NCBI GenBank assembly: GCA_046760505.1
Contig: JBHIEG010000009.1
Location: 1-64,000, forward strand
DNA: 64,000 nt
Source: Candidatus Hydrothermarchaeota archaeon
GTDB lineage: Archaea; CAYFZR01
Direction of reading: 5' to 3'
Numbering within the stretch: position 1 is the stretch's first letter; the number at the start of each line of letters is the position of its first letter. The notes beneath the pieces were generated by a model. That model was given only the letters and a program-made list of their open reading frames with translations. It searched no databases and was not told where the DNA came from. The position numbers and the translations under genes are program-made. Below are positions 6,063 through 34,177 of the stretch, piece after piece.

Positions 6063-6705
6063 CAAGAAAACGGGATGCTGGAGAATGTCCATCCAGAAGT
6101 ATACGGTTCTCCCTATGAATTCATATTATTTCCCCTGGAATACGAAGGAGCCCAGATCTGAAATTGTTAGATTCAATAGAGCTTTAAAATTGGCTAACCT
6201 ATCCGAAAAAAAGAGTAAGAATGTTATAACTATAAACTAACACGAAAAAGAGGACATTGAAAAGATTTTTAATAGATTTAACGTAAGTTATGAAAAAAAG
6301 ACATTATTTCAGCGTATTTAGGTATTTAATGCCGAGATAACGGCATTAATACAGCAATTTTTCCAGCCAGCTGATGAGATACAAGTATTAATCATTATGC
6401 GCTTCTTCGTTATTTTTCTAATCACCATTCAAAATAACTCTCTGTTAAGACTTTGATAAATTTGCATACACTTTGATTTTTTTATAGAATAGATATAAAA
6501 AAGGATCCAGATTTAGATTTTTTAAAATTTAAGGTGTTTATAGTAGGTTTTATAAAAAAATAATTATATCAGGCTATCTCAAGGCCGATTGGATAAGATT
6601 TGTAATAGATTCATTATTAAACCCTTCGCATGAGAAAAAATTTTTATCTTAGTTTTTCATATCCTATTTGAAAAAGTACTGGTTTATTCTAAGTTGGAGA
6701 TAGAA

Positions 6706-7686: not shown

Positions 7687-7687
7687 T

Positions 7688-8626
7688 TTGGATTACGGAA
7701 TCAACTTTAACGGTGATATGCCATTTCAAGATATTGCAAAGGGTTCAAAGATATCGGAAGAGATAGGATTCCACTACATTTGGGTGGGGGAATCTAAAGA
7801 TGTCGTTCATCCGTTTCCTGTTATTGCGCTAATATGCGAAAGTACCGAAAAGACCAGAATAGGTTCTGGCGTAATATCGCCCCAGTTAAATCGATGCGAG
7901 CACATAATAAAGGCTTTTGAGACTCTGCAAGAGGTATACGGAAGGAGATTCGTGGTAGGTCTTGCCCCAGGAGACTACTTTGGACTCAAATCTTTAGGAA
8001 TTAAGAGAAAACCAATCGAAACAGTTGGGGTATGTGTGATAGACATAGTTACAAGCAGGAACCCTGTTTTCGTTGTTGATGATGTGGAAGATCTGAAGGC
8101 AAAGTCAAGAATAAAAAGAGACATAACCGATATACCTATATTCATTGGTGCTGCCAGCCCTAAGATGATTAAACTAGCGAGTTCCATAGCAGATGGTGTT
8201 TTACTGAATTATGTGCATCCTGATTTTGTTGAATGGGCCTTAAGATACTTCAAGAAAAAAAACTACGTTGGAGTTTATGGTCCATCTCTTATTTTGCCTG
8301 ATAAAAAATACGAGGGTCATTTGAAAATTGCAGCATCTGTAGTTGCCTCGAGCGTTAGCAAGGAGATTCAGGAAGAATTTGATATGGAAGAAAGTATAGA
8401 AGACATTAAAAATATCATTTTGAAGAAGAGGTACGGAGAATTAAAAAAATATAACAATTTTTTACTCGAGAAATTTACGATCTCTGGTGATATATCTGAA
8501 ATCAGGAACAGGATAGATGAATTTAAAGATATGAAGGTTGATCAGGTAATTTTCGGAGGCCCGATGTGCGAGAACATAAATTCAATCAAACAACTTAAAG
8601 GATTGTTGAACGGTTCTTCGCAATAA
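7688..8626 (+). CDS. LLM class flavin/F420-dependent oxidoreductase (second, more divergent paralog)
   Basis: RIGSGVISP, RFVVGLAPGD, AASPKMIKLASSIADG. Confidence 0.8.
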   Translation: MDYGINFNGDMPFQDIAKGSKISEEIGFHYIWVGESKDVVHPFPVIALICESTEKTRIGSGVISPQLNRCEHIIKAFETLQEVYGRRFVVGLAPGDYFGLKSLGIKRKPIETVGVCVIDIVTSRNPVFVVDDVEDLKAKSRIKRDITDIPIFIGAASPKMIKLASSIADGVLLNYVHPDFVEWALRYFKKKNYVGVYGPSLILPDKKYEGHLKIAASVVASSVSKEIQEEFDMEESIEDIKNIILKKRYGELKKYNNFLLEKFTISGDISEIRNRIDEFKDMKVDQVIFGGPMCENINSIKQLKGLLNGSSQ

Positions 8627-9394: not shown

Positions 9395-10792
9395 CTATTC
9401 TGCGCAACAACTCATCTTCGTTACATCTCTTTTAAAAGATGTTGCAACCAGTTTTATTGCCTCCGCCATGGTTGGAAACACATGGACCGTATCGATGATG
9501 TCATCAATGGTTAGTTTATACTTTACCGCGAGCACTCCTTCGTGTATCATTTCAGCAGCGAAGGGGGCAAGAATATGAATGCCGAGAATGCGTTTTGTGT
9601 CTCTCTCAATGACCATCTTTATCAAACCTCTTGTGTCTTTAATGACGTTTGCCTTTGGAACAAGTTTCATAGGCAAAGTTTTGCATACGCAGTTGTAACC
9701 TTTTTCCAATGCTTCTTTATCTGTTAATCCTACACTTGCTACTTGGGGAGATGTGAAAACTGCGTGAGGTATTGCAAAGTAATCCATCTTTATTCCTTTA
9801 TTTTTTAAAGCATTTTCAGCCGCTATAGAGCCTTCTTTTGCTGCTGTGGTCTCGAGCATCGGCTTTCCAATCACGTCTCCTGCTGCATAAATGTGTTTAG
9901 CCGTAGTTTGCATCTCGTCGTTTACTACTATGGCTCCATTTTTGTCAACTTCAACACCAACCTTGTCTAAACCCAGGCCTTCTGTGTTTGGTTTTCTTCC
10001 CGTCGCCATAAGAATCTTTTCTCCCTTGAATTCTCTTTTTTCTCCTCTAACTTCCGCTTTAACTACTTTGCAATCCCCTTCCCTTCTTACGCTTTTGATC
10101 GTAACTCCAGTATGAATCTCTATCCCCTCCTCTTCAAGGTATTTTCTCAAAGCTATAGAGATCTCTGGCTCTTCATCAGGTAATATTAATGGGCTTCTCT
10201 GCAGCATCGTAACCTCAGTACCAAAGTGAGCATACATCTGGGCGAACTCACATGCCAATGCTCTTCCTCCTATTATGATCATTGATTCCGGCAGTTCTTT
10301 AAGATCTAATGCTTCTACATTTGTGAGGTAATCGATCTCTTCGATTCCCTTGATTTTCATGATGTTTGGCGAAGAACCTGTTGCTACTATAAATTTTTCC
10401 CCATAAAGCGTCTTTCCGTTTACCGAAACTTCATTTTTTGATGTAAAGAAAGCCCTTCCTCTAATCAAGGAGACTCCCGGGAGTGAATTTGCAACGTCAA
10501 TGTACTTCTCCTTTCTCAAATTCTTTACTAAATTATCTTTTTCGTGCATAACTCTACCGAAGTCTAAGGTTGATCTCACCTCCAACCCTCTAAGCCCGTG
10601 ATTTTCATAGTAATGAATTTCTCCGACGTGAAGTAGGTGTTTCGTTGGTATGCAGCCCACATTAACGCATGTTCCCCCTATAACTCCTCTCTCTATCATC
10701 GCTATATTCGCTCCTAAATCAGATGCCTTTATTGCAGCTCCAAATGCAGCGGACCCGCTTCCTAGAATGATCAAATCATATTTTTCCATCAT
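9395..10792 (-). CDS. merA: Mercuric reductase (no N-terminal NmerA domain)
   Basis: GGTCVNVGCIP redox disulfide, HVFPT, C-terminal SCCAE. Confidence 0.92.
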   Translation of the reverse strand: MMEKYDLIILGSGSAAFGAAIKASDLGANIAMIERGVIGGTCVNVGCIPTKHLLHVGEIHYYENHGLRGLEVRSTLDFGRVMHEKDNLVKNLRKEKYIDVANSLPGVSLIRGRAFFTSKNEVSVNGKTLYGEKFIVATGSSPNIMKIKGIEEIDYLTNVEALDLKELPESMIIIGGRALACEFAQMYAHFGTEVTMLQRSPLILPDEEPEISIALRKYLEEEGIEIHTGVTIKSVRREGDCKVVKAEVRGEKREFKGEKILMATGRKPNTEGLGLDKVGVEVDKNGAIVVNDEMQTTAKHIYAAGDVIGKPMLETTAAKEGSIAAENALKNKGIKMDYFAIPHAVFTSPQVASVGLTDKEALEKGYNCVCKTLPMKLVPKANVIKDTRGLIKMVIERDTKRILGIHILAPFAAEMIHEGVLAVKYKLTIDDIIDTVHVFPTMAEAIKLVATSFKRDVTKMSCCAE

Positions 10793-10814
10793 TATACCTC
10801 AAATTAAATTATTT

Positions 10815-11402
10815 TCAATTAACTGATTTATCTTCTACTATTTCTGCCCTATATGGCTTGAACAAAGAAATAATTTCTTCTTTGGCTATTCTATCAGGAT
10901 CATAGGTTACCTCTCCCTTTCCATCGTAATAACTCACCTCGGCTTTGATTATTCCTTCCTCTTTCTTCAATCTATCCTCTAAGATGGTCGCACAGGATGG
11001 GCAAGTCATTCCATCGACACTTAAAACGATAATTCGCTGGTAGTGCTCTCTATCCCCTGGAGCAATTTCGCCTTCAAATTTAATGGCTGTAATTCTTGGA
11101 ACGATTAAGAAAGTTATTAATGTGTAGAAGGCCAAATATGTTATGAGAGTTGCGATAATAAATTTAACTCTGTTTCTCATTGTGCAACAACTTTTATTCT
11201 TCCTAAAGTACATTCCTATTGCGACTGCTAAAAAAACAAAACTCATAACGAGAAAATAGTTCTTGTATAGAGTGATTGTCAGCGCTGTTGTAACGCCGCC
11301 TATTCCAAGGATAACTATGAGTGCAGGAACGATACAACAAAGAACGGCGATTAGGCTTGATAGAGTACCCAAACCAACGGACCTAGGATCAATTTTAACT
11401 AT
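10815..11402 (-). CDS. Mercury transporter MerT-like membrane domain fused to an HMA (MerP-like) domain
   Basis: AVLCC in TM1, cytoplasmic CC, three TM helices, GMTCPSC; start uncertain (ATA 11402 after GGAGGT, or TTG 11372). Confidence 0.8.
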   Translation of the reverse strand: MVKIDPRSVGLGTLSSLIAVLCCIVPALIVILGIGGVTTALTITLYKNYFLVMSFVFLAVAIGMYFRKNKSCCTMRNRVKFIIATLITYLAFYTLITFLIVPRITAIKFEGEIAPGDREHYQRIIVLSVDGMTCPSCATILEDRLKKEEGIIKAEVSYYDGKGEVTYDPDRIAKEEIISLFKPYRAEIVEDKSVN

Positions 11403-15850: not shown

Positions 15851-16291
15851 GGTGACTGTTAAACTGTTTATAAATTAATAACAAATCCCACATTTCTTTA
15901 AATTCTTATGTTTCAAAGTTGATTAATCTATTTATAATCTATTATAATCTGTTACAATCATAGATAATACCCCTTTATTTCTAGTGGAATATTCATCGGA
16001 GGTTTGTATTTTATGTTTACATATCGCGTAAACAACTTGGAGTTATTAACATCTCCAGTGGAAACAAAGGACTCTTGACACTCATTTCTATTTTTCTAAA
16101 TAGAAGTTTTTTTAAAATTTAAAGGAGATTTTCATCTTTTTAACACTATTTACTTTAAATCATAAACAATAATCTCAATCCAACTCTTTATCAGTATTAT
16201 CTCCAATGGAAACAAAGGGGGTGCAGCTTTACATACATTAAATCTATATACTTCCTAACTTCCAGTGGAAAAGGGGGGAAGTGGTATATTG
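15851..16291. other. Archaeal replication origin (oriC) with four ORB elements
   Basis: ORBs at 15969-15989 (-) TTCCACTAGAAATAAAGGGGT, 16053-16070 CTCCAGTGGAAACAAAGG, 16201-16221 CTCCAATGGAAACAAAGGGGG, 16260-16278 TTCCAGTGGAAAAGGGGGG; AT-rich spacers; immediately upstream of cdc6. Confidence 0.9.
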
Positions 16292-17485
16292 ATGAGAAGT
16301 CAAAGTACGTTAGAGGGTTTGTTTGAAAGAATCTACAAGACGAAAACAATTTTTAGAAATAAGGAAGCTTTAAGACATTCTTACACGCCAGAAAATCTCC
16401 CTCACAGAGACAATCAAATAAACCAACTTGCTACCATATTAGTTTCCGCTTTAAGGAAGGAAACACCCTCAAATATAATTATGTATGGTAAAACCGGAAC
16501 AGGGAAGACCGCGGTTGTAAAATACGTGGGAAAAGAATTGGAAAAAATAAGCGCAAAGTATGACGCAAATGTTCATTTCATATACATGAACTGCGAGGTC
16601 GTGGATACTCAGTATAGGGTTCTTGCAAATCTATGCAATAACTTCTGCTCTGAAAAGGTTCCTCTTACTGGTTGGCCAACAGATCAGCTCTATTCTTTAT
16701 TTATTAAAGAGATTGATACCGACTCCAAGGTAGTTGTGATTGTATTAGACGAAATTGATAAACTGGTTAAGAAAAGTGGTGATGATGTTTTATACAATTT
16801 GACTAGAAGCAATGATGATCTTAAAAATGCCAAAGCAAGTATTATAGGAATATCGAATGATCTGAAGTTCACTGAGTACCTAGATCCAAGAGTAATAAGT
16901 AGTTTGGGAGAAGAAGAGATTATTTTCCCGCCCTATGACGCAATACAGTTAGAAGACATCTTAAAACAAAGAGTCTCAATAGCATTTAAGGAAGGAGTAT
17001 TGGAGGAGACAGTAGTTCCTCTATGTGCAGCATACGCGGCAAGGGAGCACGGTGATGCAAGAAAAGCTCTAGATCTCCTAAGAGTTTCTGGTGAAATAGC
17101 TGAAAGAAAGGGAAATAGAAAGGTTACTGAAGAGGATGTGAGAATGGCAAAGGACAAGATTGAACAGGATAGAATAATCGAAGTAGTAAAGACTCTACCA
17201 AAACAATCAAAATTAATCTTATACTCAATATTACAGCTGAAAAGAGAAGACGATAGACCTATAATGACCGGAGAGGTTTTTGAAGTTTACAGGGAGTTGT
17301 GCAAGAGGACATCACTAGATGTTTTAACCCACAGAAGAGTTAGCGATCTCATATCCGAACTAGACATGCTCGGGATCATATCGGCTAAAGTAGTTAGTAA
17401 GGGAAGATACGGAAGAACAAAAGAGATTTATCTGACGATACCTTCTTATAGAATAAAAACCCTCCTCCAGGAGGAAATTCTTTAA
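16292..17485 (+). CDS. cdc6: Orc1/Cdc6 replication initiator
   Basis: YTPENLPHR, GKTGTGKT Walker A, VLDEID, GDAR, C-terminal wHTH GRYGRT; ATG 16292 preferred because GTG 16265 lies inside an ORB. Confidence 0.95.
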   Translation: MRSQSTLEGLFERIYKTKTIFRNKEALRHSYTPENLPHRDNQINQLATILVSALRKETPSNIIMYGKTGTGKTAVVKYVGKELEKISAKYDANVHFIYMNCEVVDTQYRVLANLCNNFCSEKVPLTGWPTDQLYSLFIKEIDTDSKVVVIVLDEIDKLVKKSGDDVLYNLTRSNDDLKNAKASIIGISNDLKFTEYLDPRVISSLGEEEIIFPPYDAIQLEDILKQRVSIAFKEGVLEETVVPLCAAYAAREHGDARKALDLLRVSGEIAERKGNRKVTEEDVRMAKDKIEQDRIIEVVKTLPKQSKLILYSILQLKREDDRPIMTGEVFEVYRELCKRTSLDVLTHRRVSDLISELDMLGIISAKVVSKGRYGRTKEIYLTIPSYRIKTLLQEEIL

Positions 17486-19171: not shown

Positions 19172-19279
19172 TTAAATACCTCCGATGTATTCTATTACAA
19201 TTGCTAGTATCCAAGAGACCATGAAGACTAGCATAAGAATCGCAAACAATTTCTTCTTATTTAGTCTTAGTCTCTTCAC
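19172..19279 (-). CDS. Small single-pass membrane protein (35 aa, not in ORF track)
   Basis: GTG start; MKRLRLNKKKLFAILMLVFMVSWILAIVIEYIGGI; fills the gap exactly, stop abuts the Lsm start. Confidence 0.6.
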   Translation of the reverse strand: MKRLRLNKKKLFAILMLVFMVSWILAIVIEYIGGI

Positions 19280-20243
19280 TTCTTAACCCCGTAATAATGT
19301 CTTCTTCGAAGTTAAATAAAACTTCCTCTTTCGATCCATGTTTCAAAAATAATATATTTTCTTCGATTATTTTCCCTACGCAAGAGGCTGAAAAACCTCC
19401 AGCTTTCAATATATCTATTACCTTGGTAGTTTTTTCTGAATCACAGGTAAATATGAAGCCTGTTCCAGGATAGACTCTGACCCAGTCTTTCATTTCTACC
19501 TCTTTCGGGGCAGGAATTTTTTCTACCTCAACGTAGGCTCCTTTTCTGCTTGTTTCAAGGAGCATGCCTAAAGTTCCTAGAACGCCTGGATTACTTATAT
19601 CCTTGCCTGAGCGAACGAGCGCCTTTTTCGCGAGTAATCTCAGAGAACCATACAACCTTGATATCTCTTCCTTTGATTTTTTTGTGGTAGAATCCCAGTT
19701 CAGCAACTTTGGATAGAATTTCCCATCTAAATCAATTGCAAATATAATGTCGTCACCTATCCTTGCAGAGGAACTCAGTATAATCTCTTCTTTTTTCAGT
19801 GTTCCTATGATTGCCACGTCTATTGAGTTGTACGGAGAATCAGGATGTATGTGTCCTCCTAGCATTGGAACATTAAATTTCGATACTCCATCTCTCATTC
19901 CCTCTATTGCCTTAAAGCAAAATCTCTCGTTTTGCATCGAAACAACATTTACCATACCTATTGGCTCTCCTCCCATGGCATATACGTCATTGACATTTAC
20001 CAGTACTGCACAATAACCCGCCCACCAAGGATCCTTTTTAATTAATCTGTCCCAAACTCCATCTGCCGCAAAGACAAGTAAGTTTTCATCCAAATCGATA
20101 ACAGCCGAATCTTCGCCAAAATCTGCAATGATTCTATCAAAGGAACAATCAGCCTCTTTTAATATATCAACTATGTTGTGGATGGGTTTTTTTCTAAGTA
20201 AGCCTTCATACTCCCTTACTGCTCTCACAATATCTTCAAGCAT
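19257..20243 (-). CDS. Methanogenesis marker protein 2 (PurM/AIR synthase-like)
   Basis: FGEDSAVI, AADG, VNVNDVYAMGG, GGHIHPD, KDISNPG. Confidence 0.85.
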   Translation of the reverse strand: MLEDIVRAVREYEGLLRKKPIHNIVDILKEADCSFDRIIADFGEDSAVIDLDENLLVFAADGVWDRLIKKDPWWAGYCAVLVNVNDVYAMGGEPIGMVNVVSMQNERFCFKAIEGMRDGVSKFNVPMLGGHIHPDSPYNSIDVAIIGTLKKEEIILSSSARIGDDIIFAIDLDGKFYPKLLNWDSTTKKSKEEISRLYGSLRLLAKKALVRSGKDISNPGVLGTLGMLLETSRKGAYVEVEKIPAPKEVEMKDWVRVYPGTGFIFTCDSEKTTKVIDILKAGGFSASCVGKIIEENILFLKHGSKEEVLFNFEEDIITGLRSEETKTK

Positions 20244-20302
20244 AGAAATCGAACCTCTACGAGATAAAAATAAATAGGACTATATAATCTTTGCATGGTG
20301 AG

Positions 20303-20806
20303 ATGATGAGAATATCCATGACCTTAGAGTTGAAGGATGTGCCAGGACAGTTAGTATACGCCTTAGAACCAATTTCTAAGCATAGAGGAAATATAGTGTC
20401 AGTAGTCCATCTTAGGGATAAAAAAACTAGGAAAGAATATGTACCAGTGGAAGTTACCTTTGAGGTAGAAAACAGATCTCAGCTGAATAAAATAAAAAAA
20501 GGGTTAATTGATAGAAAGATAAGGATAGCGAAGATAGGGGAAGAAAGAGGCGAGATAAAGATATCTGTGATTCTGATAGGGCACGTCGTAGACACCGACA
20601 TCAGAGATACGATAGACAGGATAAATGAAGTAGAAGGTGTTACAGTAGCAGACCTGGATTTAGAAATGCCAGATCCATTACAAGAATCATCCGCGCACAT
20701 GACCATAGTTGGTCAATCACAGGATTCTCTGAGAAATGCTTTGAAAGCTTTGGAGGAGGTTGCAGAAGAAAAAGACCTCCTAATAATTAAGTCACTGGAG
20801 AGTTAA
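20303..20806 (+). CDS. ACT-domain allosteric partner of homoserine dehydrogenase
   Basis: [11 protein letters not shown] motif, two ACT units, directly upstream of hom. Confidence 0.85.
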
Positions 20807-20807
20807 A

Positions 20808-21827
20808 ATGAACATTGCCTTACTAGGTTTTGGAACCGTAGGTCAGGGGCTTGCCAAGGTAATAAAAGAAAAAAAGGAGACGCTAAAAAAGAGATATTCC
20901 ATGGAAATAAATATAGTTGGAGTGGCTGATAGCAGTGGAGCAGCCCTGAATGAAAATGGATTAGACGTGGATATATTGTTAAAGTCAAAAGAAAAGGGAT
21001 CTGTTTCGAACTACCCGAAATTTGGTAGGGATCTCACAGGATCTGAACTGATAAAGGAGTCCAATGCTGATTTAATAGTTGAGGCAACTCCAACGAATAT
21101 ATCTGATGGAGAACCCGGAAATACGCATATAAGATGTGCGCTAAAGGAAAAAATGCATGTCGTAACATCCAATAAAGGACCACTAGCATTGTTCTTTTCA
21201 GATCTAGTTGGGCTGGCAGAAAGAAACAAGGTAGAATTTAGATATGAAGCCTCAGTTGGAGGAGCAATGCCGATTATAAATCTAGCTAGGGAGACACTGG
21301 CGGGAAACGAGATTCTTGCTATAGTGGGAATATTGAATGGAACGACCAATTACATACTAACAAGAATGTTAAAGGAAGAGGAACCTTTTTCTTATATTTT
21401 GAAGGAGGCCCAAGAATTGGGTATCGCAGAGGCAGATCCGACCTTAGATATTTCTGGCGTTGATACGGCTTGTAAGCTGGTAATCTTGGCAAATACTCTA
21501 ATGAATATGAAGCAAAGTTATAGAGATGTTAAGGTGGAAGGAATAACAAGAATAACTCCAGAAGCGATGGAACTTGCATGGAAGAATGGTTATGTGATCA
21601 AGTTGATCGGAGAGGCAAGAAACTCGAATTTGGAAGTAGGTCCAAGATTGGTTCCTGCTCACCATCCTCTTTCGGTAGAGGGAACACTAAATGTTGCCAT
21701 GTTGGAAACAGACCTTGCTGGAGAAGTTACCGTTGTAGGTAGAGGGGCTGGACAAAAAGAGACTTGCAGCGCGTTGCTGAGTGACATCATCGCCATTCAC
21801 AAAAAAATGCTAAGCGAGATACGATAA
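20808..21827 (+). CDS. hom: Homoserine dehydrogenase
   Basis: [39 protein letters not shown]. Confidence 0.95.
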
Positions 21828-21876
21828 GTTTTTGTATTTTTTTAATTGTTTACACAATATGTAAACATACCAAAAA

Positions 21877-22704
21877 TCAAACCAATTTTATTATGATTTT
21901 CTTATGCTCCACGCCTAAACTCTCTGCAACTGAGAGACACTTTGCCTTCAGAACATACAGAAGCCTGCCGGAGAGTTTTCCCTCGCACTCCGAGAGAACT
22001 TCATAGTTTCCCATCCCCTTGCTTATAATAAGATCGGCTTCTCCAAATAACTTTAAAAAATCTTTATCAGCCTCTTCAAAGTTTACTCCAACGGATTTTC
22101 CAGCAGATAAAACAGGAGCGTCTGTAAATTCTTTTACTTCTTCAATCGTCACATCGTTTATTACAGGAACCTCTTTTGCTGCAATAAAGACCTCTTTATC
22201 TCTTTTTTTCAGCTCTTCTATGAGGAGGAGATCGAATATGAATTCTCCTGCATTGTCTGTAAGAAACAATATTTTCTGAGAGTTTTCGATTTTGTCTATA
22301 ATCAGATCCGGAACAGGAATGTCCTTTCTCAAAGAGTTCTCAATCGATTCTAACGCAAACTCGTGCCCTAGAACACCAAACTCTATTGCGTTTGCAGAGG
22401 CTGAAAGAGAAATTAACTCATTGAGGTTTCTGTACTTAATGTTCTTGGAGATTTCTAGGGCTATTTTATTGGTAATTTCTTTCAGTTCTTTGTATGGATC
22501 AGGATTCTTTGTAACTTCTTTTATGATCCTATCCCTCATTGTTCCTAGGTGTGCAGGTACCTTGTCCCTAGAAATATTATTTGACAGAAATGCGGTAAAC
22601 CTTTTTAAGATTTCAAAGTGCAAGTTTTCGTCTTCAGTTGCAAGTTCACCCTCTATTATAGCCCTTCTTATCAAACACGATATGCATCTTGGTTTTATCT
22701 TCAT
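21877..22704 (-). CDS. DUF89/ARMT1-like damage-control phosphatase
   Basis: CISC N-terminus, DPYKELK, DNAGE, NDVT, KGMGNYE, KAKC. Confidence 0.88.
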   Translation of the reverse strand: MKIKPRCISCLIRRAIIEGELATEDENLHFEILKRFTAFLSNNISRDKVPAHLGTMRDRIIKEVTKNPDPYKELKEITNKIALEISKNIKYRNLNELISLSASANAIEFGVLGHEFALESIENSLRKDIPVPDLIIDKIENSQKILFLTDNAGEFIFDLLLIEELKKRDKEVFIAAKEVPVINDVTIEEVKEFTDAPVLSAGKSVGVNFEEADKDFLKLFGEADLIISKGMGNYEVLSECEGKLSGRLLYVLKAKCLSVAESLGVEHKKIIIKLV

Positions 22705-22728
22705 GATCACACCTCTAAAATGTAAAAA

Positions 22729-23829
22729 TTAGGTAGACTTCTTCATAGCCTTTAAAACCTCTTGCATACCCTCTTTGGCGTCTAGATTCTCCTGATCAAT
22801 CTTCAAAGCCATTTCAAATGATTTAAGGGCTTCTTCATACATTCCCAAATCTTTCAGAGAATAACCTTTGCTGGACCATGCATCAGAAAGGTTTGGTTTC
22901 AGTTCCAAAGCTTTATCGAAGCATTTTATTGATTCACCAAGCATTTCCAAGGAGTATAGAGCAACACCCTTGCTGAACCATGCTATTTCATCTTCAGGAT
23001 CTAATTCTATGGCTTTGTCAAAACATTCTAATGCCTCTTCGTACCTGCACTGGTTTAGGAGGTAAGTTCCTTTGTTCTTCCACGCATGAGTATAGTTGGG
23101 GTTTATTTCCAGGGCCTTATCGTATGATTCAATACATCTCTCATCTCCTTTACTATAGAGAGTCAGACCCCTATAGTTCCATGCCTCAGCATCTTTGGGA
23201 TCAAGTTCTAGTGCTCTCTCAAAACTTGTCAGCGCCTGAGTTAGCATTCCCTGATTGAGCAAAACGAGCCCCTTACCCTTCCAAGCCAACCCGTACTCCG
23301 GATTTATCTTTATGGCTTGCTCATAGCATTTCACCGATTCGTCTAATCTTCCTAGGTTGTAGAGAGCATATCCCTTACTGCTCCATGATCTGTAGTTATC
23401 GGGATTTAACTCCAATGCCTTGTCATAACAAATCAGAGACTCGTCATATCTTCCCAACTCTTGGAGAGAATCTCCCTTATCTCGCCATGCGTTAGCATAG
23501 TTTGAATCTATTTCTATTGCTTTTTCATAACAATCCAGTGCTTCTCCTAATTTACCCAGAAAATGAAGTGAGATACCTTTATTATACCAGGCTTTAGCAT
23601 TCTCTGGATTTATATTAATTACCCTTTCGTAGCATTCTATTGCTTCTTCATACTTTCCTATAACGAGAAAAGTTTCTCCTTTGTAGTTCCAAGCCTCTTC
23701 ATCTTCAGGATTCAATTCTATGGCTTTATCAAAGCATTTTATTGCCTCATCATAATTTTCCCTTCCATAAAGGGAGATGCCCTTATCCTTCCAATTTTTT
23801 ACTTTCATCGAGATCACCTCAAAGTTCAC
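22729..23829 (-). CDS. Tetratricopeptide repeat protein (~10 TPRs)
   Basis: Repeated W..KG..L...G..EEA..C.DKA.E..P units. Confidence 0.9.
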   Translation of the reverse strand: MNFEVISMKVKNWKDKGISLYGRENYDEAIKCFDKAIELNPEDEEAWNYKGETFLVIGKYEEAIECYERVININPENAKAWYNKGISLHFLGKLGEALDCYEKAIEIDSNYANAWRDKGDSLQELGRYDESLICYDKALELNPDNYRSWSSKGYALYNLGRLDESVKCYEQAIKINPEYGLAWKGKGLVLLNQGMLTQALTSFERALELDPKDAEAWNYRGLTLYSKGDERCIESYDKALEINPNYTHAWKNKGTYLLNQCRYEEALECFDKAIELDPEDEIAWFSKGVALYSLEMLGESIKCFDKALELKPNLSDAWSSKGYSLKDLGMYEEALKSFEMALKIDQENLDAKEGMQEVLKAMKKST

Positions 23830-24463
23830 TCAACATCCTCTGACAAATACGCCTTAAGGAATGACTCGGAGGAATAGGATTGAAGTAAGGTTTACACTTT
23901 CCCTTCTTTATCATGCTCAGTACTTCGTCTTCATTGTTTGCCTCCAACAAGGTAAACCCTCTGCCTACCTCGTCTAGGAAATGAGCATCGCTTCCTCCAG
24001 TCATAGGCAGTTTGTTTTTTCTTGCATAAAGGGTTGAGAAAAAATTGTTTATACGAAAGAAATCTTTTGAATTATGTGTTTCTATAGCATCAATGTTTAT
24101 TTTTCCTATACGGTGGAGTAGACTTTTTCTTAGAAGAGAATAGGGATGTGGAGCGATTTTTAATCCGTTTTGTTTTTCTATCTCATCCTCTATTTCCTTT
24201 AGGCCCAGATTATTGTTTATTTCTTCGTATATTCCTAAAGCAATTAAGTGACCACTCTTGGTGGATAACTCTACTCCCGGCACGACGATTAGACCTTCAA
24301 AATCTTTTTTAAGTTTGATCGCCTCTAATGAACCCTTTAACGAGTTATGATCTGCTATACAAATTCCATCTAAGCCTATTTTCTTACAAACCTTCAATAT
24401 TTCCCTTACCTTAGTGCGTGAATCGCTTGAATAGATACTGTGTACATGGAGATCATACCTCAT
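23819..24463 (-). CDS. PHP domain phosphoesterase
   Basis: DLHVHS, ADHN, GVE, PHP, GGSDAH. Confidence 0.9.
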   Translation of the reverse strand: MRYDLHVHSIYSSDSRTKVREILKVCKKIGLDGICIADHNSLKGSLEAIKLKKDFEGLIVVPGVELSTKSGHLIALGIYEEINNNLGLKEIEDEIEKQNGLKIAPHPYSLLRKSLLHRIGKINIDAIETHNSKDFFRINNFFSTLYARKNKLPMTGGSDAHFLDEVGRGFTLLEANNEDEVLSMIKKGKCKPYFNPIPPSHSLRRICQRMLSEL

Positions 24464-25038
24464 TTTAACATCCTCACACCGTACCACATTCTCTGAATCA
24501 TTGTGAAGTAAGCTAGTAGAACAACCAGAAGCACGCCTATGCTCAACTCATCTATAATAGAAAATAAAACAATTATCAGAATTCTTTCAGCCCTTTCTCC
24601 CAGTCCAATTCCGGTTTTTTCTATTCCAAGCGCATCAAGCTTGGCTCTCGTATAACTGACCATTATGGAGGCATGTAACGCTAAAGCACCCCATACAAAT
24701 CCAGGTATTCCCAAGAAGCCAGATATTCCACCAACTATTATGCCAATAAATACCAAGCCCTCAACTATCTTGTCCAGAACAGAGTCAATGAAAGATCCAA
24801 GAGAAGTTGCTTTTTTTAAAAATCTTGCCAGAGAACCATCGATAACATCTAAAGAAGCGGAAATAAGAAGCATAATCCCACCGATTAATTCTAAGTTTAC
24901 TGCATAGCAGTAACTTGCAAATAGACCAAATACTAGCGTTAGAACAGTCAATAAATTTGGAGTTATCCCAATTCTCGCAAGCAAGGGCATTAAAGGTTCG
25001 AGATATGCTTCTACTTCTTCCCTATATTTTCCAATCAT
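24460..25038 (-). CDS. pgsA: CDP-alcohol phosphatidyltransferase (probable archaetidylinositol phosphate synthase)
   Basis: TPNLLT, DVIDGSLAR, GSFIDSVLD, SYTRAK, ERAER. Confidence 0.85.
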   Translation of the reverse strand: MIGKYREEVEAYLEPLMPLLARIGITPNLLTVLTLVFGLFASYCYAVNLELIGGIMLLISASLDVIDGSLARFLKKATSLGSFIDSVLDKIVEGLVFIGIIVGGISGFLGIPGFVWGALALHASIMVSYTRAKLDALGIEKTGIGLGERAERILIIVLFSIIDELSIGVLLVVLLAYFTMIQRMWYGVRMLK

Positions 25039-25078
25039 GATTTAAAGTATATCAAGAATATTTAAATAAGGTGTGATT

Positions 25079-26614
25079 ATGAGGATCTTAGCAGTAACCG
25101 GACAATTTGCTAAGGAAGATGTAAGGAGATTTTCAAAGGATTATGACGTAGATGTTATTGATTTGCCTGTAACAGTTGCGGCGTTCCTGACACCAAAAAA
25201 AATAGCCTCTTATCTAAAACAAAAAGACGTTACAAGGTACGATTTTTTGCTGACCCCTGGTTTGGTCAGGGGAGACGTTGGATATATAGAAAGGGAGCTA
25301 GGCATTCCAACCTACAAGGGACCTAGAACTGCTGCAGATTTACCTGTTTTGTTGAGTTTAATAGAAAGATTCAAAAAGGTAAAATTATCGAAAACAGTTC
25401 CTGCATGTGTATTTATAAAAGAGAAACTCGAAAAAGAGATAAAAAAAGAAATAGACAGGTACAGAGAAGACAGGGAATTAATAAACAATCTTCTGGGTAG
25501 AGAAGGTAATTTTTTAATCAAAGACTTGCCATTAGGCAAAGATTTTCCAATGAGGGTGCTAGCAGAGGTTGTAAATGCCCCAATTCTAAAGAAAAGAGAG
25601 CTTATAGCGAAAGTAGAGTATTATATTTCCAATGGAGCCGACATGATAGATTTAGGTATGATTGCAGGGGAAGATTATGCGAAGAAGGCCGGAAAACTCG
25701 TAAAGATAGTTAAGGATAATTTTGATTGTCCGGTCAGTATAGATTCAATGAACCCTGAAGAAATATGGTCTGGGGTAAATAAAGGTGCTGATTTAGTATT
25801 AAGCGGAGACAAAAGCAATCTGGATGATCTCAGTGGTATTGATGTTCCAGTGGTCATAGTTCCAACAGACTACTCTAGGGAATACGTGCCCCATAAATTT
25901 GAGGAGAGGATTAAATTGCTAAAAGAGAACATAGATATTGCCTTGAGGAATAAAATTTTTCCTATAGCAGACCCACTTTTGGATCCAATTCATTCTACGA
26001 GTCTAAGTGAGTCTATAGCAACATGTGTTTTATTTAGAAGAGAATTTAAAAACATTCCTTTATTTTTTGGTTTAGGAAATGTTACAGAATTGTTAGATGC
26101 CGATTCCCCGGGTGCAACCGCTGTTCTAGCGGGAATAGCCTCTGAACTGGACGCTTGCATACTATTTGCTCCAGAGGCAAGTGATAAGACAAGAAAAAAT
26201 ATAAGAGAACTTTCTATCGCATCAAAGATGATGTTTATATCAAAAATAAGGAGGTCTCCACCAAAAGACATAGGAATAGATTTGCTAACGATAAAAGAAA
26301 AAAGAAAAAAAGGAGAAACACTTGATATTGATGTAACAAAGGTAGAAGCAAAAGAGAAGAAAGGATACAGACTGGATCCTGCAGGTATTTTTAGAATAAT
26401 CGTAGACAACCGTATAAGGGCGATACACTTCCTTAACGGCAAGCCTACGCTAGAAATAGTGGGAGAAAATGCCAAGGAGATATGCGACGAAATAATGAGG
26501 AGAAATTTAGTATCAATGTTAGATCATGCTTTTTACTTGGGAAGAGAACTTTGTAAAGCAGAGATAGCCTTAAAATTAGATAAAAGTTATATCCAGGACC
26601 TTCCTCTCTTCTGA
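25079..26614 (+). CDS. Dihydropteroate synthase-like pterin-binding protein with C-terminal DUF4346
   Basis: GADMIDLG, SIDS, GNVTELLDADS, DPAGIF, HAFYLGRELCKAE...YIQD. Confidence 0.85.
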   Translation: MRILAVTGQFAKEDVRRFSKDYDVDVIDLPVTVAAFLTPKKIASYLKQKDVTRYDFLLTPGLVRGDVGYIERELGIPTYKGPRTAADLPVLLSLIERFKKVKLSKTVPACVFIKEKLEKEIKKEIDRYREDRELINNLLGREGNFLIKDLPLGKDFPMRVLAEVVNAPILKKRELIAKVEYYISNGADMIDLGMIAGEDYAKKAGKLVKIVKDNFDCPVSIDSMNPEEIWSGVNKGADLVLSGDKSNLDDLSGIDVPVVIVPTDYSREYVPHKFEERIKLLKENIDIALRNKIFPIADPLLDPIHSTSLSESIATCVLFRREFKNIPLFFGLGNVTELLDADSPGATAVLAGIASELDACILFAPEASDKTRKNIRELSIASKMMFISKIRRSPPKDIGIDLLTIKEKRKKGETLDIDVTKVEAKEKKGYRLDPAGIFRIIVDNRIRAIHFLNGKPTLEIVGENAKEICDEIMRRNLVSMLDHAFYLGRELCKAEIALKLDKSYIQDLPLF

Positions 26615-26619
26615 AATTT

Positions 26620-27453
26620 CTATATCCAAAAATCATCGACATCTTTAATTTTTTTCCAGTTATCAAAGGATGAAGTCCAAACTAAATCGTGTACGGTTAA
26701 TCTACCTTCTCTTATCCACTCCTTAACAGTCTTTAGATCAACAGGACCATACTTTCTTCCTTCTTTAAAAACATACCAAGTTTGAGGCTTTTCTGGTTTT
26801 TTTACGGAATCCCTGATTTTTTGTACAATTATTGCATCATCTTTTTCGAGATAGGTCCATGGCTCTCTCACCTTCCAGGTGATCTTTCCGCATATCGGGG
26901 GCTCAGGATAGGCTCCAGGATCATACAATCTATAACCCATGAATTCGGTTGGCTCCTCTTGATAACAAGACCGAACCGCTTCCCTTATCACATCAGGGCT
27001 TCCTTCGTTTAGAAGATCGATTAAAGTTATTTGATTCCTGAACCTTTCGATGGCTTCTATTTTTACATTATAGAGAAAAGGGGTTGGGGCTTCTGTACCA
27101 ATTATTTTTCTTTTTTTGTCCACTCCGTTTTTTATAAAGGCTATAAAAGCATCTCCTGTTAGATGTCCCAAAGATTCTCTTCCGCAGAGAATTATGTATC
27201 GGATGTTGGGGTTCGCCACCACGTTTGTTATGATCTTTTCTATTCCTATGTTTTCTGTTTGTAACATTCCGGCCAATGCTGCGCCAGTTTCTATAGAAAC
27301 CCTGACGATTTCTTCTAGATATAGAGGTATTTCTGTGTCCCATGTATTGAGAATCGCAACAACAGCCACGGGAGAATAATCGTTTCCTCTCAGATATCTT
27401 CCTTCTTCGGGAGGGTAATCTGGACAGGGCTTTACCTTCAGTATCTCCTCCAC
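26620..27453 (-). CDS. mtrA: Stand-alone MtrA-like corrinoid protein with C-terminal GYF_2 domain
   Basis: SPVAVV, TENIGIEKIITNVVANPNIRY, GHLTG, AIERFRNQI; C-terminal WY...YGP...W.....W. Confidence 0.8.
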   Translation of the reverse strand: MEEILKVKPCPDYPPEEGRYLRGNDYSPVAVVAILNTWDTEIPLYLEEIVRVSIETGAALAGMLQTENIGIEKIITNVVANPNIRYIILCGRESLGHLTGDAFIAFIKNGVDKKRKIIGTEAPTPFLYNVKIEAIERFRNQITLIDLLNEGSPDVIREAVRSCYQEEPTEFMGYRLYDPGAYPEPPICGKITWKVREPWTYLEKDDAIIVQKIRDSVKKPEKPQTWYVFKEGRKYGPVDLKTVKEWIREGRLTVHDLVWTSSFDNWKKIKDVDDFWI

Positions 27454-27600
27454 CTATATCTTTTCTTTAATTAATTTTACTTAAGACTTACAAGTGGTTA
27501 AGATCTTTCGTAACTAAAATCATGGATAAGAGTCCTTGCATGATTTTTACGGTAAAAAAGGAGCAAAGATCACCGATGTAGATCTTTTGTTAAAAGAAGT

Positions 27601-27816
27601 TTAGCACTTTTCTGTCTCTATATATTCTAATTTCAAGACTCCGTTCTTACATCCTTCAACACATATGGTACACATATCTCGCTGGCAGCATTTTTCAACA
27701 TCGACCTTGAATTCTATACCATCGTACTCAATAGCCCCTAGAGGACATGTGTTTACACAAATCATGCACATGCTGCAATTTTTTTTGTCAGTTAACCTTG
27801 GTATGGCAACTTCCAT
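27601..27816 (-). CDS. 2x[4Fe-4S] ferredoxin
   Basis: CSMCMICVNTCP and CCQRDMCTICVEGC. Confidence 0.85.
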   Translation of the reverse strand: MEVAIPRLTDKKNCSMCMICVNTCPLGAIEYDGIEFKVDVEKCCQRDMCTICVEGCKNGVLKLEYIETEKC

Positions 27817-27826
27817 TTAATTAGCC

Positions 27827-28486
27827 TCATGGCACCTCTTTTTTGTGGAGGATCCAAGGGATCGTAATACTGAGTATGTATTCTCCCCATTCCTCAGAAA
27901 TCCTTAATGCTTCTTTTATATTCTCAATAAATTCTTTGTAGTCATTTTTTTCAAAAGATTTGACCGAATCATCTGTTTTTTTATCTAAAATCTCTAAATA
28001 TCCTATGGATTTCTCACACCAGTTTTTTGAAGGAGCTATCTTTTTTGAATTTTCGATCTGACTCTTTAAAATATTTAGAAGTGATTTCATGATGTTTTCT
28101 TTGAGTATATCTTCCTTGAAGGTTTCTAGGATTTCCAATATACACTTTAGGGAGGTAGAAATACTGGTGTTCCTGATTAAAAGAGATTGCATTCTTTCCC
28201 ATGTCATAGCTGTTTTCACCTTTAATTCGTGGGCTCGCTCTACCATGCTTCTTAGTTTGTCTGCATCTGGAACTCCAACAATTGCTAGTTTATTGTCTAT
28301 CGCAATGCTGGGTACTCCAGGTATTCCATATTCCATTGCTTTTTTCTGACCCTTTTCCGTGGCTGTGTTTAATAAAACATACTCCAGTTTATCAGACATC
28401 TCATTGGCTATCTCTTTTACCACGTCCTCTGCATATGGACAGTATGGACATGTGGGCGAGATAAATAGTTCGAGCAATACCTTCAC
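27827..28486 (-). CDS. Thioredoxin (CPYC) fused to an uncharacterised helical domain
   Basis: GTG at 28486 after GGTGG; SPTCPYCP, GVPSIAID; the ORF-track extension to 28774 is spurious (overlaps the opposite-strand gene). Confidence 0.75.
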   Translation of the reverse strand: MKVLLELFISPTCPYCPYAEDVVKEIANEMSDKLEYVLLNTATEKGQKKAMEYGIPGVPSIAIDNKLAIVGVPDADKLRSMVERAHELKVKTAMTWERMQSLLIRNTSISTSLKCILEILETFKEDILKENIMKSLLNILKSQIENSKKIAPSKNWCEKSIGYLEILDKKTDDSVKSFEKNDYKEFIENIKEALRISEEWGEYILSITIPWILHKKEVP

Positions 28487-28574
28487 GACTACCACCTTCT
28501 GTTCATATTTATTGAACAATAGTGAATTAGGATAAGTATTTATACTTTCCCCCTTAGATAACTTTGTGATCTTT

Positions 28575-29045
28575 ATGACCGAGCTATCTCCCTTAAGCAT
28601 ATTGATGAAACTTCCCAAGACTAATTGTAAAAAGTGTGGATTACCAACATGCATGGCCTTCGCAGTCTCATTGATCCAAAGGAAGAAGGAGTTGGAAGAA
28701 TGTACTCCCTTGTTCGAAGATGCTAAGTACGCTAAGAACAGGGAAGAATTACAGGAGATGTTAAAACCCCTCAAAGAAGTAAGTACAGAAACCGGTTTGA
28801 TAGTTAACGAAGATCTGTGCTTTGGATGTGGAAACTGCGTTATAGCATGTCCAGTTAATGTGGCGGAAGAGCCTTACAGGGTAGGACAGGGAAAAGGACC
28901 CCAATCTGATAAGTATATATTACACACTGAAGATGGCGTTGTAAAAGCTATAAATGTAAAATCCTGCAGACGCTTTGGTGAACACAGAGTTTTGTGCGAG
29001 GCATGTATTGTAACTTGTCCAAGCAAAGCCATAAAGTTTGTTTGA
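28575..29045 (+). CDS. Fe-S protein: FeS domain plus 2x[4Fe-4S] ferredoxin (FwdG-like)
   Basis: LPKTNCKKCGLPTCMAFA...C; CFGCGNCVIACP; C...CEACIVTCP. Confidence 0.8.
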   Translation: MTELSPLSILMKLPKTNCKKCGLPTCMAFAVSLIQRKKELEECTPLFEDAKYAKNREELQEMLKPLKEVSTETGLIVNEDLCFGCGNCVIACPVNVAEEPYRVGQGKGPQSDKYILHTEDGVVKAINVKSCRRFGEHRVLCEACIVTCPSKAIKFV

Positions 29046-29054
29046 GGTCTCTTT

Positions 29055-30128
29055 ATGGAGGTAATTTGTTCAGGATGCAGTTGCTTGTGCGACGACATTG
29101 AAATAAAAGGCACCGTCTTCTGGAATGCTTGCAGAAAAGGAACCGGGAGACTTAAGCCGGTAGAAGGAGAAACCGATGTTAAAAAAATAAATGAGGCGAT
29201 AGATCTCTTAAATTCTTCTAAAAAAATAGGAATCTACGGTGGTGCAAACCTGTCTAACGAAGGAATAAAAATCCTATTCGATCTAGCAGAAAACCTAGGA
29301 GCTATTTTTTGGAACAGAGATTTAATCCAAAGAAATTTGTTTTTGAAAGCGTACGAAGAATGGGAAATCGCAAAACTTGACGAAATAAAGGATTATGGAA
29401 GATTTATTATGTGCTGGGGATCGGATAACATGAACACTCATCCAAGGCTTTTGAGCAGGTACATTTACTTTACTCATGGAGAAAAGACCCCAAAAGGCTA
29501 TGAAGACAGGATCTTAGTTCCAATAGACATCGAATTAACCCCAACAGCAGTTATTTCATTGCCATACTACGTCAAATTGAAGAAAGGAACCATATCTGAG
29601 ATAGAGAAAGCGGACAAAAAGGAGACTAAATTGGTTAAACATGCTCTAGAGAAGGCTGAACACAGGTATATTATAATTGGAGAGAGAATAATAGAAGAGG
29701 AAGACGAACTGGATAGGTTCATAAAAGAGTACGAAATGAAGGTTTTGCCCTTAGCGCATGGATTCAACCACTACTCATTGTTTGAAGAACTCTTGAAAAG
29801 AACAAAGAATATCTCTCCCTATGACTTTGAAAACAAAGAGATAGCTAAAGAGTACAAAGTTGATGTACTCTTGATTGTGGGGGGAAATCCTTTTGCAAAG
29901 GTGCCTGACTCGCAAGAATGGGCTGAAAAAATTATAACACTAGATCCTTTCAGATCATACACCGCGTTGAAATCAGAAGTCTGGATAAAGAGTGCACTTA
30001 ATGGAGTTTGTGTATCGACAAATGCAAAAAGAATGGATGGGGAGGATGTTTCCATAGAGGCATTGTATCAAGGAAAGTTGCTCTCTGATGAGGAGATTCT
30101 CAGGAGTATTTTGGAGGGAACCACATGA
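29055..30128 (+). CDS. Formylmethanofuran dehydrogenase subunit B-like protein (degenerate)
   Basis: CSGCSCLCDDI...NACRKG, WGS...HPRLLSRY, RMDG; no Cys at the metal-ligand position. Confidence 0.75.
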   Translation: MEVICSGCSCLCDDIEIKGTVFWNACRKGTGRLKPVEGETDVKKINEAIDLLNSSKKIGIYGGANLSNEGIKILFDLAENLGAIFWNRDLIQRNLFLKAYEEWEIAKLDEIKDYGRFIMCWGSDNMNTHPRLLSRYIYFTHGEKTPKGYEDRILVPIDIELTPTAVISLPYYVKLKKGTISEIEKADKKETKLVKHALEKAEHRYIIIGERIIEEEDELDRFIKEYEMKVLPLAHGFNHYSLFEELLKRTKNISPYDFENKEIAKEYKVDVLLIVGGNPFAKVPDSQEWAEKIITLDPFRSYTALKSEVWIKSALNGVCVSTNAKRMDGEDVSIEALYQGKLLSDEEILRSILEGTT

Positions 30129-32971: not shown

Positions 32972-33150
32972 CTCTCTTATCGTCTTCACCTCCGGTGTGA
33001 TAATTTAGCCTAGATTATTGCTTTTCGTTTTTGGTCGATAAAACTTATGGTGTATTTCAAGATTTAATCAAAAATGTAAAAAAAGTCTACAAGGTTTTTT
33101 AAGCAAAAAAAACATTTTGACACTTTCCTGTTAAGAATAGAGCCGAATAG

Positions 33151-33163
33151 AAAAGTTTATATC
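33151..33163 (+). promoter_or_regulatory. BRE/TATA promoter of the structured RNA
   Basis: Purine-rich AAAAG followed by TTTATATC, ~25 nt upstream of G33186. Confidence 0.7.
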
Positions 33164-33185
33164 TTTAAAGTTACACTTCATATTT

Positions 33186-33353
33186 GCCCCAAGCAGATCG
33201 GGAAAACTTGCGACGAGGTGAACCGCTCAGCATCGAGAATTCGATGTTGAACGGGGTGGTAGTTGCAAGAACGATACCACGATGCAAAGAACCAGTTGAA
33301 AAACTGGGGAAGGTGTCGGTGGCCAGTATCGAAGTACCGAGACTGCTTGGGGC
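33186..33353 (+). ncRNA. Unassigned ~168-nt structured non-coding RNA (three-way junction)
   Basis: GC-rich island; 11-bp closing stem GCCCCAAGCAG/CTGCTTGGGGC; several internal helices with G-U pairs; GAAA tetraloop; TATA upstream and T-tract downstream. Confidence 0.8.
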
Positions 33354-33370
33354 TTTTTTATTGTTTCTTC
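33354..33370 (+). terminator. Oligo-T terminator after the ncRNA
   Basis: TTTTTTATTGTTTCTTC immediately after the closing stem. Confidence 0.6.
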
Positions 33371-33385
33371 TAACTTATTGATAGT

Positions 33386-34177
33386 TTAATTTTTCAAAGC
33401 ACTTGCAAGCGCAACAGCATTTTCGTAGTTTGGGCTTACTCTGGAGGTATCGACGAACACCCTGTCTATGTTTACTACTGGAGCGCCAAAGCCCTTTCCT
33501 CCCCCTAAAAGGACTAGGGTTCTGAAGATAAGGTTTCCTGTTATTCCATCTGGCACTATAATAATGTTAGCCTCTTTCACTGCATCTTCTATAAGTATTT
33601 CATAGTGCTTGCAATCCACCTTTTCTTTTAGTATGCTAGCCAGATATTCGCCTTCCATCAATGTTTTATCAACTCTTTCGTCTCTTCCCAAGTCCTGCTT
33701 CCTACCTCCAGATATTATACCAACCCTTGGCTTTATATCGATTTTTTTTGCAATCTCTGCTCCGAATTCCACGAATTCTAATTTCTCCAAAGGTGTTCTG
33801 CCTTCATCTATTCCGACCGGGGCAAGAAAAAAATATCTGTCCTTTGGAGTACCCAGCAAAGCCATTCTCAATATTTTCGGATAATATTTTTTAAGGAAAG
33901 ATAACGTATCGCTAGCGGGTAGAGACCCCCTCACTGCTCCCTCTACATCTCCCTTCATCAACAACTCTATCAGAGTCAAACATGGGTCATCGCTCACTAT
34001 AGTTTCGACAAGCCTAGATTTTTTTTGAGAAACCAAAACCACGTCAGCATATCCTTTTTCGATTGCGCTAATCGCCTTTTCTTCAGCTCTTTCAAAATAT
34101 CCTTTTTTTTCTGTTCCCGCTCCTAAGGCTATTCTAGCCTTATTCCTTTTTGCCATTTCGTATATTTTTTGGATCAT
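33386..34177 (-). CDS. mtxX: Methanogenesis marker protein 4 / MtxX (phosphotransacetylase-like fold)
   Basis: [41 protein letters not shown]. Confidence 0.9.

Follow-up and report, generated by a model that had tools for sequence, protein, structure and literature searches.

What does a GC-rich island in an AT-rich intergenic spacer of an uncultured vent archaeon encode? The island lies in a stretch of 64,000 nucleotides (positions 1 to 64,000 of contig JBHIEG010000009.1, assembly GCA_046760505.1, Candidatus Hydrothermarchaeota archaeon), referred to below as the window, and an earlier note on this DNA had read it as a stand-alone, highly structured non-coding RNA (ncRNA) gene on the + strand. 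That reading is supported here: the locus is very probably a genuine ncRNA gene. GC makes up a fraction of 0.536 of the RNA and 0.276 of the spacer around it, the figure for the entire window being 0.375. We favour a single-copy, independently transcribed gene for a stable ncRNA of ~170 nt that would act in trans through its shape, most likely as a component of a ribonucleoprotein (RNP), although for this complete reading our confidence is evenly poised.

The RNA is predicted to fold into a three-way junction

The minimum free energy (MFE) computed with RNAfold for the RNA is -80.3 kcal/mol, compared with -47.5 +/- 4.0 kcal/mol for 200 dinucleotide shuffles (z -8.29), and 0/200 shuffles fold as well as the RNA itself. 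The reverse complement reaches -65.8 kcal/mol, 14.5 worse than the + strand. The predicted structure is a three-way junction, in which P1 and P1b form the closing stem and two long arms, A and B, extend from the junction (Table 1). All helices from P1 to P6 that the earlier note had picked out by eye are present where it had placed them. When the sequence from the host genome (G000) is folded alone, the MFE structure has a slightly different register in arm B (CCAC/GUGG); the P4/P5 register of the earlier note is the one common to the sister species described below. Unpaired stretches are predicted to reach 5-8 nt at most, the longest of them lying within internal loops or junctions.

Table 1. 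Features of the RNA locus in window coordinates (G001, sister species).
Feature	Position	Strand	Remarks
AT-rich upstream block	33063-33149	.	conserved with G001; about 90-120 nt
BRE-like GAAAAG and TATA box TTTATATC	33150-33163	+	TATA 33156-63; read from sequence
RNA	33186-33353	+	~168 nt; P1 5' end to P1 3' end
P1	33186-96/33343-53	+	11 perfect bp
P1b	33198-201/33337-40	+	5' strand UCGG, 3' strand CCGA; 4 bp
P1b 5' strand, then GAA	33198-33206	+	GAA (33202-04) of sarcin-ricin-type module
Arm A	33207-33269	+	P2, internal loop and P3 hairpin
P2	33207-14/33262-69	+
Arm A internal loop	33215-22 / 33255-61	+	GAGGUGAA / GGUGGUA; 8x7, G-rich
P3	33223-36/33241-54	+	hairpin 33223-54; 13 pairs and one C.A mismatch; GAAU loop
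Arm B	33272-33331	+	P4, loop, P5, purine loop, P6
P4	33272-77/33326-31	+
Arm B loop between P4 and P5		+	CA/GUGGCCA; 2x7
P5	33281-85/33313-17	+	plus C33280-G33318
Arm B purine loop between P5 and P6		+	AAAGAA/GGAAG
P6	33292-97/33302-07	+	GAAA tetraloop cap
Junction strand and P1b 3' strand	33332-33342	+	A-AGUA, CCGA, bulge GA
T6 tract	33354-33359	+	presumed archaeal terminator; directly after last P1 base

The fold is kept in a sister species

The host lineage is isolated: the LeuRS of the congeneric species G001 is 81% identical to that of the host, whereas the next best among 151 archaeal genomes is ~50% identical. G001 carries a homologue of the RNA with 83% identity over 196 nt (BLASTN), and 91% of the RNA columns are identical between the two species; the flanking Clp1-like and BpsA-like genes have 76% DNA identity with G001, and part of the spacer is unalignable. 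Across the locus, positions 33063-33365 align to G001 at 82.7% identity and positions 32995-33062 do not align. The G001 orthologue folds to the same architecture (z -7.25). In the RNAalifold structure of the two-species alignment, 53 pairs are formed, comprising 44 invariant pairs, 8 with one-sided changes, 1 with a two-sided change and 0 broken. P2 contains one compensatory change (G-C to A-U) and one change from G-U to G-C, P4, P5 and P6 each carry one wobble-compatible change in G001, and two C>U changes in the 5' strand of G001 P1 give U-G pairs. All 8 one-sided stem changes are switches between G-U or U-G and Watson-Crick pairs. Read on the minus strand, each of these wobble changes would be a C.A mismatch, which fixes the + strand, in agreement with the better fold of that strand and with the orientation proposed earlier. 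A strain variant from a fourth metagenome run (X4) has a single change in the RNA, C33330>U, converting a G-C pair of P4 to G-U. As roughly every second transition in a Watson-Crick pair would disrupt it, the pairing kept at nine one-sided changes suggests selection on RNA structure, by a rough argument rather than a formal test.

Within arm A, all 15 bases of the internal loop are identical in G001, and the tip of P3 varies (GAAU in the host, GAGA in G001). The earlier note had further proposed that the GGUGGUA strand of this loop pairs with UACCAC as a pseudoknot or switch. The pairing is perfect in the host genome; in G001, however, the partner reads UACGAC with GGUGGUA unchanged, creating a central G.G clash, and the proposal is not supported. 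The other suggestion of the earlier note, that GGUGGUA could capture a tRNA 3' ACCA end as T-box bulges do, is a speculative one: no T-box model matches, and GGUGGUA faces the equally invariant GAGGUGAA strand.

The locus carries its own promoter and terminator signals

The TATA box TTTATATC, preceded by an element like the transcription factor B recognition element (BRE), ends 23 nt upstream of G33186, the first base of P1, and the promoter counterpart in G001 is GAAAAGTATATATC. The T6 tract corresponds in G001 to T6 followed by T5, and similarity to G001 stops a few bases later. Both the upstream BRE/TATA signal and the downstream T-tract had been recognised in the earlier note, and TATA-box spacing and oligo-T termination are established features of archaeal genes. 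A similar AAAG-TTCTTATATC precedes the mature 5' end of the host's RNase P RNA at a comparable distance, and for this reason the BRE/TATA signal looks like the host's promoter type for stable RNAs. The transcript probably ends a few U beyond 33353. Further upstream, the conserved AT-rich block may be a regulatory region of the RNA promoter with binding sites for regulators. In G001 the BpsA-like gene is separated from this block by a further ~290 nt (L080:7430-7720); as the insertion lies upstream of the conserved block, block and RNA move as one unit. The insertion itself contains a small minus-strand open reading frame (ORF) whose signal-peptide-like product starts MNKIVLLTLLATILAITG...

The RNA matches no known family and is found in two sister species

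Rfam 15 (4227 models, including Hgc, SscA, raiA, cobalamin, T-box and ribozyme families) has 0 matches that reach the gathering score anywhere in the 64 kb. At E<=10 over 33000-33500 nothing falls on the RNA, the sole match being a 19.9-bit match resembling a small nucleolar RNA in the AT-rich spacer, and the G001 orthologue has only sub-threshold, unrelated matches (E 0.98-9.1). The earlier assignment to no known family thus stands relative to Rfam 15, on which the status of an undescribed RNA rests, the literature not being searchable by sequence. ARAGORN reports 0 tRNA or tmRNA genes in the window. The models RF00001, RF00373 and RF01857 have no match at the RNA locus, and the 5S, RNase P and signal recognition particle (SRP) RNAs of the host are encoded on other contigs (89.1, 198.5 and 196.6 bits, all above cut-offs).

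Archaeal guide RNAs are likewise small stand-alone RNAs, and arm A is superficially H/ACA-like in having its 8x7 loop between a lower and an upper stem. Unlike them, the RNA has neither a C box (RUGAUGA) nor a D box (CUGA) in 33186-33360, the ACA triplet is absent from it, the bases following P2 being AAC, and no K-turn (tandem G.A / G.A-A.G) is visible by reading the upper stem, P3; a box C/D or H/ACA guide RNA is accordingly excluded. These negative results bear out the earlier statement that signatures of tRNA, 5S, SRP, RNase P and C/D-box RNAs are missing. With T-box leaders and riboswitches the RNA shares a multi-helix fold and conserved purine-rich loops; it differs from them in that the T-box models and the other Rfam models have no match on it, the switch pairing is not conserved, and there is no same-strand gene downstream or, for that matter, on either side. 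A riboswitch or 5' leader is rejected on this last ground, as the earlier note had argued from the convergent mtxX gene.

Homologues were sought at several levels. BLASTN of 61 genomes finds a homologue in G001 only, with short matches of 23 and 28 nt elsewhere (G043 and G032, E 0.002-0.004). A covariance model of the RNA (R1), searched in a broad sample of 151 archaea and in two phyla, those of G106 (66 genomes) and G003 (151 genomes), detects no homologue beyond the congeneric lineage in these genome sets; its weak matches in G052, L085, L103 and L104 are chance ones within coding sequence. Exact-pattern scans, which require exact words and would miss diverged relatives, return 27 loci from 185,579 species genomes, where the G001 contig alone is real and the rest are coding or chance; 41 loci from Joint Genome Institute (JGI) metagenomes, of which 1 is real with a score equal to that of G001; and 3 loci from viral contigs, with 0/3 matching the model. 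A scan of the genome for GC islands yields 324 islands at the threshold tried and is too noisy for use. Within the 2.17-Mb host assembly (142 contigs; unassembled sequence could hold another copy) the RNA has 1 match, so a miniature inverted-repeat transposable element (MITE) or other dispersed repeat, which the earlier note had named as refuting an RNA gene, is rejected. The arm B block AAAGAACC...GGGGAAGG likewise occurs once in the genome, where no paralogues of the arm B module were found. The RNA appears to found a new sequence family, known in two sister species only.

Conserved non-canonical modules may form docking surfaces

At the base of the junction, AGUA (33333-36, 3' strand) and GAA (33202-04, 5' strand) flank the G33201-C33337 pair directly above P1b. 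AGUA/GAA is one of four sequences derived for the sarcin-ricin motif in PMC1865062, and placed in this orientation around a Watson-Crick pair it is the canonical sequence of a sarcin-ricin (loop E, bulged-G) motif. G001 has insertions of 3 nt and 1 nt on the two module strands and keeps both AGUA and GAA. A sarcin-ricin three-dimensional motif, with its S-turn, may accordingly be predicted at the junction base. In arm A, the loop end adjoining P2 reads GGUA/GAG, one base off a listed sarcin-ricin variant, and this end of the GGUGGUA loop seems to belong to an S-turn and not to be freely single-stranded.

5S rRNA (RF00001) offers a structural parallel: a long terminal helix closes a three-way junction from which two arms extend, and a loop-E/sarcin-ricin-type AGUA/GAA lies beside the junction. 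It differs in length (~120 nt against 168 nt), the studied RNA does not match its model as noted above, and the bona fide 5S of the host is that of another contig.

On these features we base a tentative model. The RNA would act in trans through its folded shape, with no long antisense pairing and no role as an mRNA, and its most likely role would be that of the RNA part of a ribonucleoprotein. The invariant non-Watson-Crick modules, namely AGUA/GAA at the junction base, GGUA/GAG with the rest of the arm A loop, and AAAGAA/GGAAG in arm B, would be docking surfaces for protein or RNA, and the GAAA tetraloop would help to pack arms A and B side by side. Such structural order usually accompanies a specific molecular partner. 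We infer from the sequence and its conservation that the RNA is transcribed and stable, that it packs into a tertiary structure and that it has a protein partner and a cellular role; the S-turns and the tetraloop docking are a putative three-dimensional reading of the same kind. Action through the fold, rather than through antisense pairing or coding, seems to us somewhat the better bet, and a protein-binding scaffold specifically is a suggestion that we put forward a little less readily than we would doubt it.

Several points weigh against this model. The evidence comes from two species and one strain variant, and one compensatory pair is thin covariation. A column-shuffle control does as well in 261/500 cases, and two sequences cannot discriminate by this test; sliding the pairing partners leaves 27-45% paired versus 100%, a control that is biased by deriving the structure from the same sequences. 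U33233-A33244, a pair of the longer P3 in the host, is C.A in G001, and conservation overall is not clearly higher at unpaired than at paired positions. Synteny with the neighbouring Clp1-like kinase gene and BpsA-like gene extends over two close species only and has little weight. The four sequencing runs that contain the locus are all DNA and belong to one study, the sarcin-ricin assignment takes sequence alone as its basis, and the protein partner is a postulate. In the 28-codon frame discussed below, moreover, the split of substitutions is slightly more synonymous than the neutral expectation. With a narrow known distribution, a single compensatory pair and sequencing runs of DNA only, we keep our support for the model at a moderate level.

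Alternative explanations

The alternative that survives best connects the RNA with a larger one from another archaeal phylum, that of G106. R1 has weak matches in 7/66 genomes of this phylum (per-genome E 0.07-1); 6/7 of these genomes come from one family and are matched at the same hairpin, and the seventh (G205, L085) is a chance match in the coding sequence of transcription factor B. The hairpin is part of a family of stand-alone RNAs of ~236 nt, for example at L083:1449-1685 (+), where a TATA box of its own, a T-tract and a closing helix of 10 bp accompany a fold with a z of -10.5, and it is also present at L084, L086-L089, L091-L096, L098, L099, L101 and L102. No Rfam 15 family matches it, a tRNA is excluded, and the RNase P and SRP RNAs of genomes that carry it are located elsewhere. 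A model of its 5' domain (R2; 37 pairs, 7 with compensatory changes), with a further model (R3) from 17 sequences, was built; the 5'-domain model finds the RNA in 51/66 genomes of the phylum in 1-5 diverged copies each, adjoining unrelated housekeeping genes, and in no other phylum among the 151 broadly sampled archaea.

The studied RNA could be a reduced, rearranged relative of this family that has kept an ancestral protein-binding module in common with it. The two share a hairpin block, AAARAAC..GGGGAAGG, with 21/28 bases identical to 33286-33313; in the ~236-nt family the order is stem, AAAAAC, hairpin, GGGGAAGG, stem. By our own reading both contain 5' GAGGUG..AACCG, a hairpin and ACGGGG, although this likeness was defined after both sequences had been seen. 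Both stand alone with a TATA box, a closing helix of 10-11 bp and a T-tract, the other weak R1 matches that were inspected all lie in coding sequence, and arm B is among the only matches that R2 and R3 return at E<=10 in the host genome. The scores, however, are poor: with alignment confined to model positions 43-82 (33280-33318), R2 gives 14.0 bits (E 5.2) on the host genome and no match in G001, R3 gives 13.9 bits (E 3.9), no better than a chance match in a hisF-like ORF, and nhmmer gives E 32 at rank five. The topologies also differ, the modules being nested in one helix there and placed on separate arms here, where P2 is backed by a compensatory change; the ~236-nt RNA is moreover ~65 nt longer with an extra 3' domain and has 1-5 copies per genome. 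With no significant full-length match by R2, R3 or nhmmer, membership in the family is rejected as a finding and kept as a lead, and descent by reduction and rearrangement is in our view unlikely, though it is the strongest of the alternatives. A bolder version, somewhat more doubtful still, would make the studied RNA the first member to be recognised, from a deep-branching vent lineage, of an ancient and so far undescribed class of RNP RNAs of archaea that would include the ~236-nt family, the AAARAAC..GGGGAAGG hairpin and the GAGGUG..AACCG block being sites for a protein conserved across archaeal phyla.

To about the same doubtful degree as that bolder version, the RNA could be a base-pairing regulatory small RNA (sRNA) whose exposed G-rich loops pair with C/U-rich mRNA sites or with the 3' end of 16S rRNA. 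The candidate loops are GAGGUGAA, which contains the Shine-Dalgarno-like GAGGUGA, together with GGUGGUA and GUGGCCA; their G-rich bases are invariant between the two species, GAGGUGA is complementary to the archaeal 16S 3' tail, and archaea, Haloferax for example, commonly have free-standing sRNA genes under promoters of their own. Yet the best antisense match in the genome is 15 nt (E 0.27), lies inside a conserved PEPCK-like coding motif and is attributable to chance, and the reverse complements of the 7-8-nt loop words are not enriched (44, 101 and 21 occurrences versus 33, 133 and 133 expected). Candidate seeds also lie opposite each other in one internal loop, where they are probably engaged in non-canonical pairs, and no start codon follows GAGGUGA within 4-10 nt.

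A trans-acting aptamer or ribozyme, with the folded RNA sensing a ligand or performing catalysis, is less probable again. A compact three-way junction, a GNRA tetraloop and invariant internal loops are typical of aptamers and small ribozymes, and all of them occur here in an RNA attached to no gene; no riboswitch or ribozyme family matches at E<=10, however, the RNA is not upstream of a regulated gene, and its sequence gives no hint of a ligand or of a site of cleavage.

That the locus is no gene at all, serving instead as a bidirectional terminator or insulator or being the relic of a mobile element, is suggested by its location between convergent and divergent genes and by the break in synteny right after it. 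This is very improbable: a conserved, dedicated promoter stands at the correct distance, the locus is present once and neither terminal repeats nor target duplications are reported for it, a terminator needs far less than six helices over 168 nt, the RNA is more conserved than the flanking genes, and viral contigs hold no counterpart (0/3 of the pattern matches fit the model).

Least credible of all is that the locus encodes a small protein (45-65 aa), read from the ORF 33184-33381 (65 aa) or from an internal GUG at 33257 on an incidentally structured mRNA, for although the ORF exists, a gene finder called a 45-aa product, and G001 shares a central 28-codon frame (peptides VVVARTIPRCKEPVEKLGKVSVASIEVPR and VVVRSIRRCKEPVEKLGKVSVTSVEVPR) whose ten differences are by our own count 5 synonymous and 5 non-synonymous, indels of 3, 1, 2 and 1 nt put the sequence before and after that frame out of register and leave unrelated N- and C-termini, the stop codons lie beyond the T-tracts (T6 in the host), only the window's own 45-aa product is matched among 5.8 billion proteins, and a non-synonymous C>U (GCA>GUA) is half of the compensatory pair of P2.

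Neighbouring genes and other features of the window

The RNA is flanked by two minus-strand genes, a divergent one upstream and a convergent one downstream. The upstream gene encodes a protein of 335 aa that matches BpsA_C strongly (245.8 bits) and a winged-helix domain weakly, and the downstream gene encodes Mmp4/MtxX (TIGR03270, 233.8 bits versus a cut-off of 190). Synteny between the host and G001 breaks right after the RNA: in G001, mtxX and its PRTase neighbour are on another contig, beside a different gene, and a link of the RNA to mtxX is rejected on this ground. The G001 contig ends ~180 nt past the RNA (L080:8200-8276) in a repeated G-rich motif, TATATGGGGGTG.AGAGAGGGGGT, present twice; this repeat probably broke the assembly.

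Elsewhere in the window, three copies of a 20-nt repeat with TCCAGTGGAAAC lie at 16051-16277, upstream of and into the start of orc1/cdc6 (16265-17485), and the gene for the PolD small subunit follows orc1/cdc6. The repeats resemble archaeal origin recognition boxes, and 16051-16277 is probably a replication origin. A mercury resistance pair at 9395-11372 (-) comprises MerA (603 bits, above cut-off) and a MerTP-like transporter with a metal-binding domain (81.5 bits, below the cut-off of 180). A cluster of methanogenesis-related genes spans 19257-30128, comprising methanogenesis marker 2 (above cut-off), an MtrA-like protein, a fusion of dihydropteroate-synthase-like and MtrA parts and an FwdB-like protein (below cut-off); two Mer-like F420 reductases at 6694-8626 are likewise below cut-off.

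Relation to known archaeal RNAs

The closest known kind is that of the GC-rich orphan ncRNA genes of AT-rich hyperthermophiles, which Klein, Misulovin and Eddy reportedly found by base composition in 2002. Like the studied RNA, the Hgc RNAs (such as HgcC, RF00062) are stand-alone, GC-rich, structured islands of an AT-rich archaeal genome found by base composition, and their function is unknown or was long so. Copies of HgcC, by contrast, are multiple and often lie within IS1341-type transposase genes (PMC4247193, PMC4615843); the studied RNA is single-copy and intergenic and has no Hgc match in Rfam 15 at E<=10.

Beyond rRNA, tRNA, RNase P, SRP and guide RNAs, few structured ncRNAs of archaea are known to our knowledge. 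Should the link to the ~236-nt family prove false, the studied RNA would be a lineage-specific orphan, useful as a test case and as an annotation marker, with limited general reach. Should it prove true, the two RNAs would belong to an unrecognised RNP spread over archaeal phyla. As an RNA from an uncultured vent archaeal lineage, it samples RNA biology that is invisible to Rfam-based annotation.

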